NCBI GenBank assembly: GCA_964635715.1
Contig: CAZWNZ010000001.1
Coordinates: forward strand, 138,358-202,357
Length of the DNA: 64,000 bases
Direction of reading: 5' to 3'
From: an uncultured Gammaproteobacteria bacterium
GTDB taxonomy: Bacteria > Patescibacteriota > Microgenomatia > UBA8517
The position numbers were made by a program, and so were the translations under genes. Below are positions 3,067-18,403 of this stretch, piece by piece (the stretch's first letter is position 1; every line of letters begins with the position of its first letter). Below the pieces are notes generated by a model. The model saw only the letters and a list, made by a program, of their open reading frames with translations. It did no database searches and was not told where the DNA came from.

Positions 3067-3672
3067 ATGCCAGACATTTTTGTTTCTCCGGAGAAGATAG
3101 AGGAAAAGCCAGTTAAGGAAAATATTGAACATGGTCATAGACGTAGACGCCTTTCATCTTATTATCTTCACCCAAAACACATTAATTTTGAAACAAAAGA
3201 CCAGGACGAGGAAATAATACTGATGCTTAGACAGCATCCGATTATTAATTTAAAATGGATTGCAATTACCATAGTGCTTCTTTTGTGTTTGTCCTTTGTG
3301 GAAAAGACCAATTTCTTTTCTCTTCTACCTGAAGGTTATCCATTAATTATTAAGATGGTATGGTATCTGGTTACTTTTATTTATGCGGTCGAAGGTTTTT
3401 TCCATTGGTATTTTAATGTTTATTTCATTACAAAAAGAAGGGTTATCGATGTAGATTTCTTTAATATTATCAGTAAGAGAGTTACGGATGCTGAAATAGA
3501 CAAGATTCAGGATGTCACTTACACAAATAGCGGTCCTATAGGAACAATATTTAATTATGGAGAAATTTCAATTCAAACATCCGGAGAATCACGGGAAATT
3601 GCTTTTGAAAATGTGCCACATCCCGACAAAGCCGCGGACATTTTGGATGATTTGAGAGCAATGTATAAATAA
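3067..3672 (+). CDS. Membrane protein with bacterial PH (bPH_2/YdbS-like) domain
   Basis: Two TM helices are followed by a beta-rich domain with a YdbS-like pattern (VIDVDFFNIISKRV...ISIQTSGESREIAF). Confidence 0.45.
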   Translation: MPDIFVSPEKIEEKPVKENIEHGHRRRRLSSYYLHPKHINFETKDQDEEIILMLRQHPIINLKWIAITIVLLLCLSFVEKTNFFSLLPEGYPLIIKMVWYLVTFIYAVEGFFHWYFNVYFITKRRVIDVDFFNIISKRVTDAEIDKIQDVTYTNSGPIGTIFNYGEISIQTSGESREIAFENVPHPDKAADILDDLRAMYK

Positions 3673-6091: not shown

Positions 6092-6185
6092 AAGACTATG
6101 GCTCTACTTCGCTAGAGCTTCGAAGAGCACTTCTTCGATAGGAGTGCTGCGCGCTTCGAAACTCCAACAAGGTTGGAGTGAAGAA

Positions 6186-6550
6186 GTGGAGACGGCGGGA
6201 ATCGAACCCGCGTCCGAAAATACTATAAACAATACTTCTACAAGCTTATTAGATCTTTTTTTATTTTCTTTTAATTTAAGTCGATCTACAAACAATCAAA
6301 AGTAAGGCTAATTTAGTTTCAGCTACTAGCTATCAGCCGTTAGCTATTAGTTATATCCCGGATTGGTTTACACCCTTTTGATCCGGCCGAGATTCAGATC
6401 TAAGGACGCAACTTAAGCGTACGCTACTGCGTAGTTAGGTTGGGCTTGGAATAAATTCCTAGCTTTTATTTTTTAATCCCTTTTGACAAGTGATGATCAA
6501 ACTTGGCTTGCTGTATTGTAAAGAGCTCTCCGTCGAAACCGATCGTCCCC
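6186..6550 (-). ncRNA. ssrA: tmRNA (SsrA)
   Basis: The reverse strand reads 5' GGGGACGATCGGTTTCGACGGAG... and ends ...GGACGCGGGTTCGATTCCCGCCGTCTCCAC. The acceptor stem is GGGGACG/CGUCUCC with a G3:U pair. An internal frame reads ...AQPNYAVAYA followed by a stop, which fits a tag peptide. smpB is adjacent. Confidence 0.8.
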
Positions 6551-7126: not shown

Positions 7127-7792
7127 ATGGGATTTTTGGATTTGGTTTTTCCTAAAAATTGTCTCGGCTGCGGCAGAGAAGGAAAATATCTTTGCCCAAT
7201 ATGTATAGATAAAGTTCCCCGTGCAAAAGCAATTTGCCCTTATTGCAAACACCCTTCAATGGATGGAGTAACTCATGTTAATTGTCAAAGAAAGCTTGGA
7301 ATCGATGGTCTAACTTCCATCTGGAGATACGAGGGGATTGTCAGAAAGGCAATATTAGCTTTGAAATACAAATACGCGACGGAAGTAGGCAGGGAAATTT
7401 CTGAATATGTAATTAGTTCACTTGGGAATTTGATTTTACCTCCTGTGCACAATTTATGCCCGGTTCCTATTTATTGGCATAAACAAAATATTAGAGGATT
7501 TAATCAATCAATTGAGCTTGGCGGAAATATTGCGGAGAATTTGCGGTTAAATTTTGTTCCTGACTTGTTGATTAAAAAGGTTAATACAATTCCGCAAGCA
7601 AATCTTTCAGGTAAGGAGAGAATGCAGAATTTAAAAGGTGTTTTTGCAGTTAACCCCAGCTACCAACTACTAGATTCTAGATACTTGCTATTTGATGATG
7701 TTTTTACCACAGGTTCTACAATGTTTGAGGCAACAAAAGTTCTAAAAAGAGGAGGGGCAGATAAGGTGTGGGGACTGACAATTGCAAGATGA
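7127..7792 (+). CDS. ComF-family protein (double zinc ribbon plus phosphoribosyltransferase domain)
   Basis: N-terminal CxxC...CxxC pairs and a C-terminal PRTase motif LLFDDVFTTGST. Confidence 0.8.
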   Translation: MGFLDLVFPKNCLGCGREGKYLCPICIDKVPRAKAICPYCKHPSMDGVTHVNCQRKLGIDGLTSIWRYEGIVRKAILALKYKYATEVGREISEYVISSLGNLILPPVHNLCPVPIYWHKQNIRGFNQSIELGGNIAENLRLNFVPDLLIKKVNTIPQANLSGKERMQNLKGVFAVNPSYQLLDSRYLLFDDVFTTGSTMFEATKVLKRGGADKVWGLTIAR

Positions 7793-8155
7793 ATTGAAAT
7801 CGATTTATATAATGATATAATCCCTTCCAGAGCTGGAAATTCGGAAAACCCTGAGAGGTGGCTAGTTTGATCATCACGCCTTGTCTGACAATTGCGTCAG
7901 TACATATATTTAAAGTGATGGAACAAGCTCAAGGTTCGATTCCTTGTAGGGTGAAGAGGGTTTTCTAAAGACGCGCAGAATAGGTGGGAGGCTATGATAG
8001 TGTGATGAAGGTCACAAAGGAGCCGTCAATGAAATACTACCCCCTTTAGTTTTAAGAAATTATAAAAAAATACCCGATCACGTTTTCCAGCTCCACCCTC
8101 TTTCTCTCCAATTAAGCAGTAATTACGTTCCATTTTTGATATAATGATCGAGCTT
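7793..8155. other. 360-nt non-coding region with tRNA-like T-arm and a 10-nt long-range complementarity (candidate structured RNA)
   Basis: Contains GGTTCGATTCC (7938-7948). GAGCTGGAAA (7833-7842) is the exact reverse complement of TTTCCAGCTC (8073-8082). No ORF longer than the spurious track entries. Confidence 0.3.
8137..8145 (+). promoter_or_regulatory. Extended -10 element TGaTATAAT upstream of tRNA-Ser
   Basis: TGATATAAT lies 10 nt before the tRNA 5' end. The same style occurs upstream of tRNA-Asn (17767-17775) and tRNA-Ile (62899-62907). Confidence 0.5.
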
Positions 8156-8239
8156 GGAGGATATGCCGAGCGGTTAAGGCAATTGTTCGCTAAACAATGT
8201 CGCGCAAGCGACCGACAGGTTCGACTCCTGTATCCTCCG
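8156..8239 (+). tRNA. tRNA-Ser (type II; anticodon probably GCU, C at position 33 is unusual)
   Basis: GGAGGAT...Ser-type D-arm GCCGAGCGGTTAAGGC, long variable arm, T-arm ACAGGTTCGACTCCTGT, acceptor ATCCTCC plus G. CCA is not encoded. Confidence 0.7.
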
Positions 8240-8244
8240 CCCAT

Positions 8245-8326
8245 GGTGGGCGGGCAGGACGGTAATGCGCGGGTCTTGAAAACCCGTGGGAGCAATCCCT
8301 AACAGGTTCGACCCCTGTGCCCACCG
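8245..8326 (+). tRNA. tRNA-Ser(UGA)
   Basis: GGTGGGC..., anticodon loop CTTGAAA, long variable arm, T-arm ACAGGTTCGACCCCTGT, acceptor GCCCACC plus G. Confidence 0.8.
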
Positions 8327-8345
8327 CACTTCTTTGTTTTATCAA

Positions 8346-8359
8346 CTTCTGTTATAATA
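8346..8359 (+). promoter_or_regulatory. Conserved promoter-like box CTTCTGTTATAATA (extended -10), copy 1
   Basis: An identical 14-mer recurs at 10056-10069. Here the TATAAT ends 6 nt before the ATG at 8365, which implies a leaderless mRNA. Confidence 0.5.
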
Positions 8360-8364
8360 CGCAT

Positions 8365-8913
8365 ATGGAATCTGCCTCCAATCCTGCCGATAGCACATTA
8401 AATGGGGAACCACAGGCAGTGGTCGTAAGAAGAGAAGCAGAACGTGATATTATCACCTGGGTAGCTCCAGCAAGACCTTTTAAAAGGTATGGTAGAAAAT
8501 TTTATGTCACCGTTTTTTCCATAATCGGAATTATCGGTATAATTTTTTTTATAGCTGAAGGCATTATGCCAGTGATACTTTTAATTTCCCTAACCTTTTT
8601 ATTTTATGTTTTGTCTACTGTTCAGCCTGAAAATATTGAATATAAGATAACAAACAGAGGGGTTAAAATTGCAGGTAGAGAAACACCTTGGCAAAGTTTG
8701 GTCAAATTTTGCTTCTCACAGAAATCCGGGAGTGATGTTTTGGTATTTGAGATGATTCCACTTCCCGGTAGAATGGAACTTGTCGTAAAGTCTGAAATTA
8801 AAGAAAGTCTCAGAAAGGAAATCTCCGCGTATATTCCATACGAGGAAATTCCACCCTCCTTTTTAGACAAAATTTTAAACTGGATTGTTAAAAAACTACC
8901 TGAGAACGATTGA
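8365..8913 (+). CDS. Hypothetical 2-TM membrane protein
   Basis: The ORF-track start at 8317 overlaps tRNA-Ser. The ATG at 8365 (MESASNP) follows the -10 box. Two central hydrophobic helices. Confidence 0.5.
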   Translation: MESASNPADSTLNGEPQAVVVRREAERDIITWVAPARPFKRYGRKFYVTVFSIIGIIGIIFFIAEGIMPVILLISLTFLFYVLSTVQPENIEYKITNRGVKIAGRETPWQSLVKFCFSQKSGSDVLVFEMIPLPGRMELVVKSEIKESLRKEISAYIPYEEIPPSFLDKILNWIVKKLPEND

Positions 8914-11125: not shown

Positions 11126-12928
11126 GTGGATAACCAAATCGAAGAGGTCAAAAATAAGACAGACATAGTTTCGATAATCGGCGAAAGAATCGAACTTAAA
11201 AAGGCGGGACGCAACTATAAAACAAATTGTCCTTTCCACGGAGAAAAAACTCCTTCATTTATGGTTTCTCCCGAACTCCAGATTTTTAAATGTTTTGGTT
11301 GTGGCGAGGCTGGAGATGTTTTTGCTTTCCTGGAAAAATATGAAGGGATGGAATTTCCCGAAGCACTGAAGTATTTGGCAGAGCGCGCAGGAATCAAATT
11401 GCAAAAATTTGGCGGTGGGCAGGCGTCTGAAAAGGAAAAACTTATAGATCTAAATCGCGAGGCTCTGCGCTTTTATAGTTACCTGCTTGTCGAGCATCCC
11501 GCTGGTAAAAAGGCTTTAAATTATTTAACGGAAACACGCGGATTAAGTCTAGAAGTAATTAAAGAATTTCAGTTGGGATATTCTCCGGACAGTTCATATT
11601 CATTAAAAAAATATCTTGTTGATAAGAAAAAGTTTACTTTAAACGAAGTCGAACGGGCAGGAATAGGGATCGTCAGAGGAAGCGGGCTTTATGACAGGTT
11701 TAACGGCAGAATTATCTTTCCTCTCTTTGATCACAGAGGAAACCCCATTGGTTTTTCCGGCAGAATTTTGCCTTGGGATAAACGCGAGACGGGAAAGTAT
11801 ATTAATTCTCCCGAAACTCCGCTATATCACAAAAGTAATGTTCTTTATGGCCTGAATTTATCACGCTCTTTTATTAAGAAGAAAAAAACAGCGATAGTTG
11901 TAGAAGGGGAACTTGACCTTATTTCATCATGGCAGGCGGGAATAAAAAATGTGGTAGCTATTAAAGGTTCTGCTTTGACCGAGGAGCAAGTTAAACTTCT
12001 TTCACGCTTTGCTCAAAAATTTATTTTAGCTCTTGATAGTGACATGGCAGGTGATGCTGCAACCAGGAGGGGAATAAAAGTGGCAGCTGATATGGGAGTA
12101 GAAATAAAAGTGGTCGAACTTTCCGGGGGGTACAAAGATCCCGATGAAGCTGCCCGGAATAATATCGAAAGCTACAAAAAAGATTTGATAGGATCAAAAG
12201 TCATTTGGGATTTTTTAATCGACTCCGTTTTTGCCCGCAACGACGCGTCAACCGGCTCCGGTAAATCAAAAATTTCTAAAGAAATTATTCCCATCCTTTC
12301 TGAAATAGGGGATAAGATTGTCCAGTCTCATTATGCAAATGTTGTGGCCAGGAAACTCAGTGTTCCTTTGGAAGCAGTTTCCGAACAGATTTCAAAAATC
12401 GAAAGGCCTTCCACAAAGCCGATTGTTCAGGAAGAAAAAGTAACAAAGGATAAAACCAAGAGAGATGTTTTGGAAGAAAACTTTCTAAAATTGACTTTCG
12501 CTGTAGATTTAAAGTCCTTATCTTCAAAAGTGGCAACGGAGCTAATTAAGATGCCGTTTAATTTAAAACTAATTGAGGAATATAAGGTATTTATGGATAA
12601 GCATAAAAAATTTAATATTTCACAATTTGGCCAAAATTTACCCAAGGAATTATTTTCAGGTTTTTCAAAAATTGTGCTTGCCGAAGAGCGTGATTTAGAT
12701 GAAAATTCGGAAGAATTAAAAAGGGAGTTGGAATTAGTTGAAAAAGAGCTTAAAATACTAGCAGTAAAAGAAAAATTAGAAGATTTAGAATCTCAGATAC
12801 GTGAGATGGAAGAAAAAGGCGAAGATCAAAAGCTTCTTAAAGCTCAAACCGAATTTAACAAACTCGCCAAATTACGCTCCACCTACGAAAAGGACGAAGA
12901 AAGCGGTATAATTCTAAACGAACAATGA
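11126..12928 (+). CDS. dnaG: DNA primase DnaG
   Basis: CHC2 zinc finger [31 protein letters not shown] and a TOPRIM region (EGELD). GTG start. Confidence 0.9.
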
Positions 12929-17430: not shown

Positions 17431-17769
17431 ATGCCCAATAAAACCCGAACAAAAGATACTAGAACCTATCGTGATAGGGCGCATTATTTAGTTCTTGCAG
17501 TTGCCAAAAGAAGACGAAAGTTAAAATCCATGGCGGTGGAATTAAAAGGGGGTAAATGCCAAATTTGTGGATACAATAAATATGTTGGGGCGTTGTCTTT
17601 TCATCATTTAGATGAAAAAAGTAAATCATTTGATTTATCAACAAAAGGTTTAACAAGAAGTTGGGAAAAAACAAAAGAAGAAGTCAATAAATGTATATTG
17701 GTTTGTGAAAATTGTCACAGGGAAATCCATGGGGGATTAATAAAGCTTCCAGTTAAGCTCAATGTTTGA
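17431..17769 (+). CDS. HNH endonuclease
   Basis: CQICGYNKYVGALSFHHLDEK...LVCENCHREIH is an HNH/zinc-finger nuclease signature. Confidence 0.7.
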   Translation: MPNKTRTKDTRTYRDRAHYLVLAVAKRRRKLKSMAVELKGGKCQICGYNKYVGALSFHHLDEKSKSFDLSTKGLTRSWEKTKEEVNKCILVCENCHREIHGGLIKLPVKLNV

Positions 17770-17792: not shown

Positions 17793-18069
17793 TCCCCGGT
17801 AGCTCAGCGGTAGAGCGGATTCCTGTGATTTCTTAGCAGCTCTTAAAGGAAACTTTAAGATGAAAACTGGGAGAATTGCGTGAAGCCCCTGTCATTTTGA
17901 CGAGGTAACCCGCAGCCGAGCCCTAATAAAAATTAGGGAAGGTTCAGAAACTATGTACCCAGACACCTCGTTTATTCTGTAAACAAGTGCAAGATATAGT
18001 TCCGCGTCCCACAGAAATGTGGGGGAGCGAGTAAGAATAAGGTCGCTGGTCCGAATCCAGCCCGGGGAG
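17793..18069 (+). tRNA. tRNA-Asn(GUU) interrupted by a 205-nt intron in the anticodon loop
   Basis: 5' exon TCCCCGG TA GCTCAGCGGTAGAGC G GATTC CTGT (17793-17826). 3' exon TAA GAATA AGGTC GCTGGTCCGAATCCAGC CCGGGGA G (18032-18069). Spliced anticodon loop is CUGUUAA. U1-A72 and discriminator G are typical for bacterial tRNA-Asn. Confidence 0.7.
17827..18031 (+). ncRNA. Group I-like self-splicing intron inside tRNA-Asn
   Basis: Exon ends in U and intron ends in G. Exon CUGU can pair with intron GCAG (P1 with a U-G wobble at the splice site). P2 hairpin CTCTTAAAG-GAAA-CTTTAAGA. P3 pairing GACGAGGT/ACCTCGT. GCCGAGCC and GAAGGU core-like segments. Terminal hairpin CCCACA-GAAA-TGTGGG. Size matches the small IC3-type tRNA introns. 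Confidence 0.6.
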
Positions 18070-18106
18070 CACTTCGGCAAGCTCAGTGCAAGCACAATTT
18101 TTGACA

Positions 18107-18403
18107 ATGAACAAGGACTGGTATGTTTATATGCTTCTTTGTGATCAGAAAACTTTTTATGTTGGGATTACTCCAGATTTATTAGAAAGAATGAGAAAAC
18201 ATGGGGACAAGCTGTCGTTTTTTACTAAAAAGTTTTCTGATCTGAAACTGGTTTATTGCGAAAAATATCGAAGCAAATTTGATGTTGCAAAAAGAGAAAA
18301 ACAAATAAAAGGTTGGAGTAGAGCAAAGAAGCAAAAGTTGATAAATGGAGAATTAGGTGTTAATACTTGTACTGAGATTGCCAAAGCTCTTTTGGGCGGA
18401 TGA
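18107..18403 (+). CDS. GIY-YIG nuclease-domain protein (YhbQ/UPF0213-like)
   Basis: MNKDWYVYMLLCDQKTFYVGITPDLLERMRKH. Starts 38 nt after the tRNA-Asn 3' end. Confidence 0.75.
   Translation: MNKDWYVYMLLCDQKTFYVGITPDLLERMRKHGDKLSFFTKKFSDLKLVYCEKYRSKFDVAKREKQIKGWSRAKKQKLINGELGVNTCTEIAKALLGG

Follow-up and report, generated by a model that had tools for sequence, protein, structure and literature searches.

A candidate stand-alone RNA gene of Patescibacteria that joins a tRNA-type T-arm to a homolog of the 23S rRNA L1 stalk

The mRNA sites to which ribosomal protein uL1 binds, in the E. coli L11-operon leader and in the archaeal L1-operon mRNA, imitate the rRNA of the L1 stalk outside the ribosome; their mimicry is minimal, confined to the H77/H78 junction, and they belong to the 5′ UTRs of rplK/rplA operons. 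In the ribosome, the conserved positions of the stalk form the uL1-binding surface together with a platform on which the tRNA elbow stacks (PMC3664808, PMC4810234, PMC5309774). Stem I of T-boxes and the S-domain of RNase P dock the tRNA elbow by the same double T-loop motif as the L1 stalk (PMC3664808, PMC4810234), of which they are structural analogues only. A different kind of tRNA likeness is found in the tmRNA TLD and in YrlA, where a larger ncRNA, closed by a long stem between its 5′ and 3′ ends, includes a canonical T-arm and has a single-stranded purine-rich stretch at the place of the D-arm. As for the Patescibacteria, Paceibacteria are reported to be without rplA and der, Microgenomatia keep rplA with H78 lost or shortened, and the loss or shortening of H78 is described for Microgenomatia, WWE3 and ABY1 (PMC12641178).

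The element described here, which is very probably a real and conserved RNA gene, shares with the 23S L1 stalk a direct sequence homology over ~95-100 nt and the same three-way junction, in which GGUGGGAGGC, GGAGCC and UGAAAUACCAC make up the two interdigitated T-loops as well as H77 and the base of H78. Unlike the rRNA domain, however, it is located outside an rRNA gene, has its own promoter, its own closing helix and a fused T-arm in ~275 nt, and carries H78 in a short, loop-less form; moreover, the gene is accessory and not universal. In comparison with the uL1-binding mRNA sites, the element copies the whole stalk, including the T-loops that contact tRNA, and is free-standing, with no rplA or rplK nearby. 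It differs from the T-box and RNase P modules in having a clear sequence homology to rRNA and in being devoid of specifier, antiterminator and RNase P catalytic core. With the tmRNA TLD and YrlA it has in common the T-arm, the long closing stem and the purine-rich stretch mentioned above, whereas the rRNA-derived domain is present in the element only, which in turn lacks an acceptor end, a CCA, a model match and any evident dependence on rsr or smpB.

The locus belongs to a 64,000-nt stretch of DNA (the window) from a Woesebacteria-like member of the Microgenomatia. It occupies a gap of 362 nt between a ComF-like gene (7127-7792, with the stop codon at 7790-7792) and tRNA-Ser(GCU) at 8155. The original prediction for this gap, a structured ncRNA that has a tRNA-like T-arm and is closed by a long-range helix, is supported by six homologs elsewhere that keep both parts, by a sigma-70-type promoter at 7794-7821 and by covariation in the T-stem. 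The parts of the gene and of its surroundings are the following:

7828 to ~8105, + strand: RNA gene, with a predicted transcript of ~275 nt.
7794-7821, + strand: predicted promoter, with -35 TTGAAA (7794-7799), a 16-nt spacer, an extended -10 TGnTATAAT and the -10 hexamer at 7816-7821.
7830-7839, + strand: P1 5′ strand GAGCUGGAAA, closing helix, inverted repeat, with an AU-to-GC compensatory change in comparison with the homolog L026.
7840-7861, + strand: 5′ junction strand, in which ACCCU (7848-7852) can pair, tentatively, with AGGGU (7948-7952).
7862-7929, + strand: variable hairpin, made of a CAUCAC/GUGAUG stem (7872-7877 with 7915-7920) and a CUGAC/GUCAG hairpin (7885-7900).
7930-7946, + strand: tRNA-type T-arm, stem CAAGG/CCUUG, loop UUCGAUU.
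7947-7964, + strand: linker UAGGGUGAAGAGGGUUUU, in which all members have an invariant UG (7952-7953) and then two purines.
7965-8049, + strand: L1-stalk homolog, with H76 formed by CUAAAG (7965-7970) and CUUUAG (8044-8049).
7983-7987 with 8037-8041, + strand: H77, GGUGG with CUACC, within the L1-stalk homolog.
7990-7992 with 8022-8024, plus 8001-8006 with 8011-8016, + strand: H78, GGC with GCC in the first pairing, and a GAAG loop.
~7973-7982 and 8029-8036, + strand: the two T-loop strands of the L1-stalk homolog.
8050-8083, + strand: 3′ junction strand UUUUAAGAAAUUAUAAAAAAAUACCCGAUCACGU, A-rich and nearly identical in L026.
8084-8093, + strand: P1 3′ strand UUUCCAGCUC.
8095-8103, + strand: 3′ tail ACCCUCUUU, complementary to GAAGAGGGU (7953-7961).
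8110-8154, + strand: degenerate second copy of the ComF 3′ end and promoter, which holds the tRNA-Ser promoter TTGATATAATGAT (8136-8148).

The promoter is of the strong sigma-70 type, with 11 of 12 consensus matches and a TG ahead of the -10 box, and the predicted transcription start, at ~7828, falls directly ahead of the 5′ arm of the closing helix. The T-loop-like GGTTCGATTCC is found, as first described, at 7933-7943 with its flanks CAAGG (7930-7934) and CCTTG (7942-7946), and so is the CTGAC-AATTGC-GTCAG hairpin, at 7885-7900. The exact T-loop 11-mer has two occurrences in the 64 kb, one in the gap and one in the tmRNA, and with one mismatch allowed six matches were counted against 0.94 expected. 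Regarding the complementary 10-mers, both exist, and only their coordinates had to be corrected by 3 and 11 nt: GAGCTGGAAA is at 7830-7839 (formerly 7833-7842) and TTTCCAGCTC at 8084-8093 (formerly 8073-8082). The 10-bp closing complement alone is within chance, with an equally good stem in 25 of 200 shuffles of the 3′ flank, and the fold stability of the whole gap is ordinary (MFE z = +0.54). A small protein gene was discarded as an explanation, given that the sole ORF in the element (7858-7968, 36 aa, GTG start) falls in the hairpin that is missing from L026.

The largest module, the L1-stalk homolog at 7965-8049, had been overlooked. A cmscan search restricted to 7822-8125 matched 7973-8042 to positions 2136-2205 of LSU_rRNA_bacteria (37.4 bits, E 4e-10), pairwise alignment placed 7969-8065 on nucleotides 2107-2199 of E. 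coli rrlH (23S), which correspond to helices 76-78, the L1 stalk, and blastn against rrlH, in a small database, gave an E of 4e-8. The H76-H77-H78 junction is present, H77 and H78 are paired, and GGUGGGAGGC, GGAGCC and UGAAAUACCAC are conserved. The 64-kb window contains no rRNA gene and no LSU match at the Rfam gathering score. A bacterial 23S rRNA gene (RF02541) was rejected, as model positions 2136-2205 alone match in the gap, and a continuation of this homology on either side (H74/H75/H79) was rejected as well, the alignment scores to E. coli 23S being inside the shuffle range. The gap therefore holds a T-arm and, ~20 nt downstream, an L1-stalk homolog.

Homologs were sought by scanning metagenomes for the pattern GGTTCGATTCC-N25-55-GGTGGGAGGC, which returned 40 loci, most of them consisting of a tRNA and then a chance match. 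In six loci (L026, L033, L035, L012, L029 and L015) the 3′ half of the L1 stalk, GGAGCC...UGAAAUACCAC, is present in addition, although the pattern did not ask for it. The invariance of GGTTCGATTCC and GGTGGGAGGC is by design, since both were fixed in the search, and the family is known from seven members whose discovery is biased by this pattern. All seven share the order of closing helix, variable hairpin, T-arm and L1-stalk-like three-way junction. A covariance model (R1) built from the core alignment of the seven members (140 positions) gave them 100-134 bits and gave the genuine E. coli L1 stalk 67 bits, with nothing above ~23 bits elsewhere in the 438 kb of sequence examined. The hosts of the window, L029 and L012 are all Patescibacteria, L029 being Kaiserbacteria/Paceibacterota-like and L012 coming from Sungbacteria-like Parcubacteria; both members are counted among the Paceibacteria. 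In phage and plasmid collections the sole matches were ordinary 23S genes, and a pattern scan of viral contigs gave five chance matches and zero members.

In the core alignment, 87.9% of the cells are paired, compared with 74% in shuffles and 40-50% when the partners are slid, and 13 pairs are changed on both sides; none of 500 shuffles reached the observed values. The covariation check that had been proposed at the outset gave a positive answer for two helices among the seven members: the T-stem, in which all three pairs that are free of the search pattern covary (3/3), and H78, with 7/7 pairs; H77 is conserved. All members keep a 6-7 bp H78 and every nucleotide of the L1-stalk core. Separate capture from different rRNAs, and not selection within the ncRNA, could be a partial cause of the H77/H78 covariation. 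H76 reads CUAAAG/CUUUAG in the window and CUGAAGG/CCUUCAG in L026, a compensatory replacement of A-U by G-C; in the distant members, H76 and the junction helices have no consistent alignment.

Each member has one closing stem, and the sequences differ (GAGCUGGAAA, GAGCUGGGAGA, GCUCGGGCA, UUACACAAAGA, CGGAGCAUGGGA, CGGGCAA and AGGACAGGGA); these stems were picked as best complements, and none is significant singly in shuffles. P1 gains support beyond chance only because of the true compensatory change, AU-to-GC, between the window and L026. In the MFE folds of several members, P1 closes a junction with at least one variable hairpin, the T-arm and a long irregular arm that ends in the L1-stalk junction. 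A short helix 'P2' (UUCGG/CCGAU) was dropped for two reasons: the window and L026 do not share its register, and it is incompatible with a better-conserved pairing, in which ACCC..UCAC (8072-8081) may pair with GUGA..GGGU (7951-7961). The G-rich linker segment GAAGAGGGUUUUC (7953-7965) has three competing candidate partners, namely 8072-8081 (nested P3), 8095-8103 (pseudoknot X) and 7844-7853, and the data favour none of them. The 3′ tail at 8095-8103 is tentatively assigned as a pseudoknot strand or as the remnant of a U-rich terminator tail; equivalent tail pairings, one nt past P1, are present in L026, L033 and L035, not in L012. In the 5′ junction strand, the purine-rich GAGAGGUGG (7853-7861) is tentatively assigned as D-loop-like, a GRRA..GG motif is weakly conserved, and equivalent short helices are present in L012 and L015. 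The variable hairpin is missing from L026 and is replaced by different hairpins in the other members. The 11 nt that precede the end of ComF (CTGACAATTGC, 7775-7785) recur exactly at 7885-7895, inside this hairpin; together with the absence of the hairpin from L026, this suggests that the insertion arose by local duplication.

The known RNA classes were then compared with the gap. Rfam 15 (4227 families) gave no match at gathering thresholds, and at E up to 10 nothing relevant was found over 7600-8400. The scan against Rfam that had been recommended with the original prediction thus yielded no tRNA, RNase P, 6S, SRP or Y-RNA match, and it did yield the L1-stalk segment of LSU_rRNA_bacteria. 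ARAGORN called six tRNAs and a standard tmRNA (about 6184-6550, - strand, 1.3 kb from the element) in the 64-kb window and nothing in 7793-8154, in agreement with the earlier failure to fold the gap into a canonical tRNA. A tRNA (RF00005), including intron-bearing or permuted forms, was rejected on the basis of ARAGORN and of Rfam at E up to 10 and for want of an acceptor partner consistent across members, the T-arm being the only tRNA feature in the element. tmRNA (RF00023), two-piece permuted forms included, was rejected as well, with no match to the tmRNA clan in the gap and a complete tmRNA elsewhere in the window. RNase P RNA (RF00010/RF00011), whose P4 consensus had already been noted as lacking, has no match in the gap, at E up to 10 on 304 nt, and only ~80 nt of the element are outside the T-arm and L1 modules. 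Y RNA/YrlA (RF02553) was rejected, Rfam giving no match and ComF, SmpB and tRNAs being the genes around the element in the window; a T-box leader (RF00230) was rejected on the same negative Rfam search and on the unrelated genes downstream. An L1 autoregulatory leader was discarded given that tRNA-Ser genes are downstream in the window and that the other members precede unrelated genes.

It is extremely improbable, in our judgement, that the element is a cis-acting leader, working by autoregulation as the L1 leader does or by T-box-like sensing of tRNA, or else a highly divergent RNase P RNA, Y RNA/YrlA or two-piece tmRNA. No terminator separates the element from tRNA-Ser in the window, so that read-through is possible; however, the downstream genes differ in every member, terminators intervene in L029 and L035, and rplK/rplA were not found in the window by tblastn with the E. 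coli L1 and L11 sequences. By eye, in comparison with E. coli, there is a likeness of GUAGGGUGAAGAGGGU to CR-II of RNase P and of GGAAAUUCGG and ACCCGAUCA to the P4 strands, but only the window and L026 have the P4-like strands, which the other five members do not conserve. Y RNAs likewise join a T-arm domain to a long closing stem; on the other hand, the isolated region matches no RNase P, YrlA, tmRNA or T-box model at E up to 10, and a divergent tmRNA would have a normal one 1.3 kb away. We rate the element as a new kind of ncRNA because all the tests for known classes fail except for the L1-stalk homology of one module, with no match in Rfam 15 and no description of such an RNA found in a full-text literature search.

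The genomic surroundings of the members are housekeeping and unrelated: ComF/tRNA, S9/GrpE-DnaK, TopA/ParB, Y1 transposase/MBL/GyrA and LysA-like/TrpF-like. Pfam scans of 20 neighbouring ORFs gave no common gene as a conserved partner protein. The promoter scan called a promoter-like site shortly before the element and on its strand in four of seven members (window, L035, L029 and L012), and in L026 such a site is visible by eye; a terminator is located just downstream in two of seven (L035 and L029). L026 and the window have the tmRNA-SmpB-ComF synteny in common, and between them the element is 79-82% identical, compared with 64% for tmRNA, 60% aa for SmpB and 42% aa for ComF. Immediately upstream of the RNA copy in L015, an ORF of the IS200-like Y1 transposase family (PF01797, E 5e-6) was observed at 11778-12434 on the - strand; the other six copies have no such ORF near them.

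Conservation in related genomes, named with the prediction as a point to be checked, gave a divided answer, since the closest syntenic relatives are without the element and true homologs are present in other Patescibacteria. A synteny search based on ComF (GTDB genomes and protein look-ups) retrieved 12 related loci (L001, L002, L004-L006 and L052-L058), with a ComF 49-77% identical to that of the window, all without the element. In L052 (ComF 72%), the promoter and the two tRNA-Ser genes known from the window come directly after the ComF stop; relative to L052, the window has ~330 extra bases bordered by copies of the promoter sequence at 7804-7816 and 8136-8148, which form a direct repeat, and L052 has one copy. 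The right edge of this inserted or retained cassette is marked by the degenerate copy at 8110-8154. A second empty site is provided by L059 and L060, whose DnaK is 94% identical to that of L029 and which have the same terminator and GrpE promoter and no element. The gene is dispensable, because it is missing at the orthologous site in every close relative examined. Overall, the gene is patchy but strongly constrained or recently exchanged.

This distribution bears on the possibility, which we regard as unlikely, that the element is a selfish or mobile RNA-gene cassette, whose RNA serves the spread of the encoding DNA (for instance as guide, template or structural RNA for mobility functions that are encoded elsewhere) or hitch-hikes by CPR recombination, with the L1 and T-arm modules as a scaffold. 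The presence/absence polymorphism at exactly conserved flanks (window vs L052, L029 vs L059/L060), the flanking direct repeats that duplicate host promoter sequence (the two copies in the window and a TTGAC box in L029), the higher conservation of the element than of tmRNA between hosts with ComF 42% identical, and the Y1 transposase adjoining the L015 copy all speak for it. However, no mobility enzyme consistently neighbours the members, and neither terminal inverted repeats nor copies in viral contigs were found. Furthermore, the flanking repeats are unequal (~13 nt vs ~5-8 nt), a deletion through recombination of two similar promoters explains them equally well, and the same ComF-proximal site in the window and L026 suggests inheritance.

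The pair tRNA-Ser(GCU)/tRNA-Ser(UGA) (window 8155-8327) is on the + strand in the window, L052 and L053, and it is inverted (- strand, directly after ComF) in L001, L002, L004 and L056, so that a small inversion recurs in the lineage. In L053, ~115 nt of unrelated sequence (3330-3440) separate the two tRNA-Ser genes, compared with a spacing of 5 nt in the window. A remnant of an ancestral minus-strand tRNA-Ser(UGA) was considered and rejected, its local alignment having a z of ~3, below the best shuffles.

There is next to no chance, in our estimate, that the element is debris without function, in which a rearrangement of the tRNA-Ser locus left a mosaic of one rDNA and one tRNA-gene fragment. 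The inversion of the tRNA-Ser pair with respect to several relatives, the resemblance of 7958-7977 to the reverse complement of the tRNA-Ser(UGA) anticodon arm and the short copy of the ComF 3′ end within the variable hairpin would fit such an origin, but the similarity to a tRNA remnant is marginal, as reported above, the element is more conserved than tmRNA, and the complete architecture recurs, with covariation, promoters and terminators, at six independent loci of other lineages. The homologs largely refute this explanation already.

We see an evenly poised case for the reading that we prefer, in which the element is an undescribed, independently transcribed accessory ncRNA of Patescibacteria (CPR), ~275 nt long, that binds the ligands of the L1 stalk by mimicking it. 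The mode of action that we propose for it is tentative. P1 would enclose a junction from which the variable hairpin, the T-arm and the long arm ending in the L1 stalk emerge, and the RNA would be a molecular mimic of the ribosomal L1 stalk. It would most likely bind uL1, in the lineages that have it, and/or a tRNA-type elbow, because its conserved nucleotides are those that form these surfaces in the ribosome. The analogy with T-box Stem I and the RNase P S-domain likewise suggests that the L1-like arm may be able to bind a T-loop/D-loop elbow. The T-arm of the RNA itself is a plausible partner in cis, which would result in a self-docked particle similar to an 'E-site tRNA elbow on the L1 stalk'. 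Binding of uL1 cannot account for everything, because Paceibacteria, which are reported to lack rplA, and Microgenomatia both carry the RNA; this counts against it as the general mechanism. Decoy or sponge, regulator and spare part are candidate physiological roles.

The last of these roles can be put as a distinct explanation, in which the RNA joins ribosomes or uL1 in trans and supplies a complete L1 stalk with an intact short H78 where the stalk or uL1 of the host is degenerate; we hold it to be very unlikely. It is in line with the lineage-specific loss in Patescibacteria of H78, or of rplA and der (PMC12641178), with the 6-7 bp H78 and L1-stalk core nucleotides kept by all seven members, and with a sequence conservation of the element near the rRNA level. 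Nevertheless, the absence at the same locus in close relatives indicates that the RNA is not essential there, the domain is closed on itself by P1, and a stretch that would lend itself to pairing with 23S was not identified. A broader form, quite unlikely in our opinion, is a horizontally exchanged stand-alone L1-stalk RNA that acts on translation in trans, either by assembling with uL1 or with degenerate-stalk ribosomes (H78 or uL1/Der lost), or by imitating the complex of E-site tRNA and L1 stalk and capturing the factors by which this state is recognised.

If the trans-acting reading were true, a ribosomal RNA domain would have become an independent, optional gene. We found no described precedent for a separate, optional gene in which an rRNA domain, copied from the ribosome, is joined to a tRNA-type hairpin, and, under the preferred reading, the element would be the fourth natural context of the double T-loop elbow-docking module, after the ribosome, RNase P and the T-boxes. 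The ribosomes of the host group vary in this same region by loss of H78, uL1 and Der (PMC12641178), so the RNA could offer a handle on E-site tRNA release and on uL1 homeostasis in minimal ribosomes. Even with a modest role, such as that of a uL1 sponge, it would be a new conserved ncRNA family in a phylum with very few described ncRNAs.

Two further observations were made in the same sequences. In relatives among the Paceibacteria, a conserved non-coding block is located just after the S9 terminator (L059 ~2270-2480, L060 ~2240-2450, L062 ~2110-2400 and L064 ~2200-2440), with the strings AAGCCGGAG, GAGAAGCGAATAC..GGAGCTTCGCAAGA and ACAGCGTCTGTAAGACGG in common; Rfam gave no match to this block with E up to 0.001, and it may be another undescribed structured RNA. 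In the window, a group I intron (RF00028, 60.9 bits, 17817-18024, + strand) was matched inside a tRNA gene at 17795-18070 that ARAGORN did not call, with the 5′ exon CCCCGGTAGCTCAGCGGTAGAGCGGATTCCT before it and the T-arm and acceptor strand GCTGGTCCGAATCCAGCCCGGGGA after it, and the intron lies between an HNH-like ORF (17431-17769) and one that is GIY-YIG-like (18086-18403).
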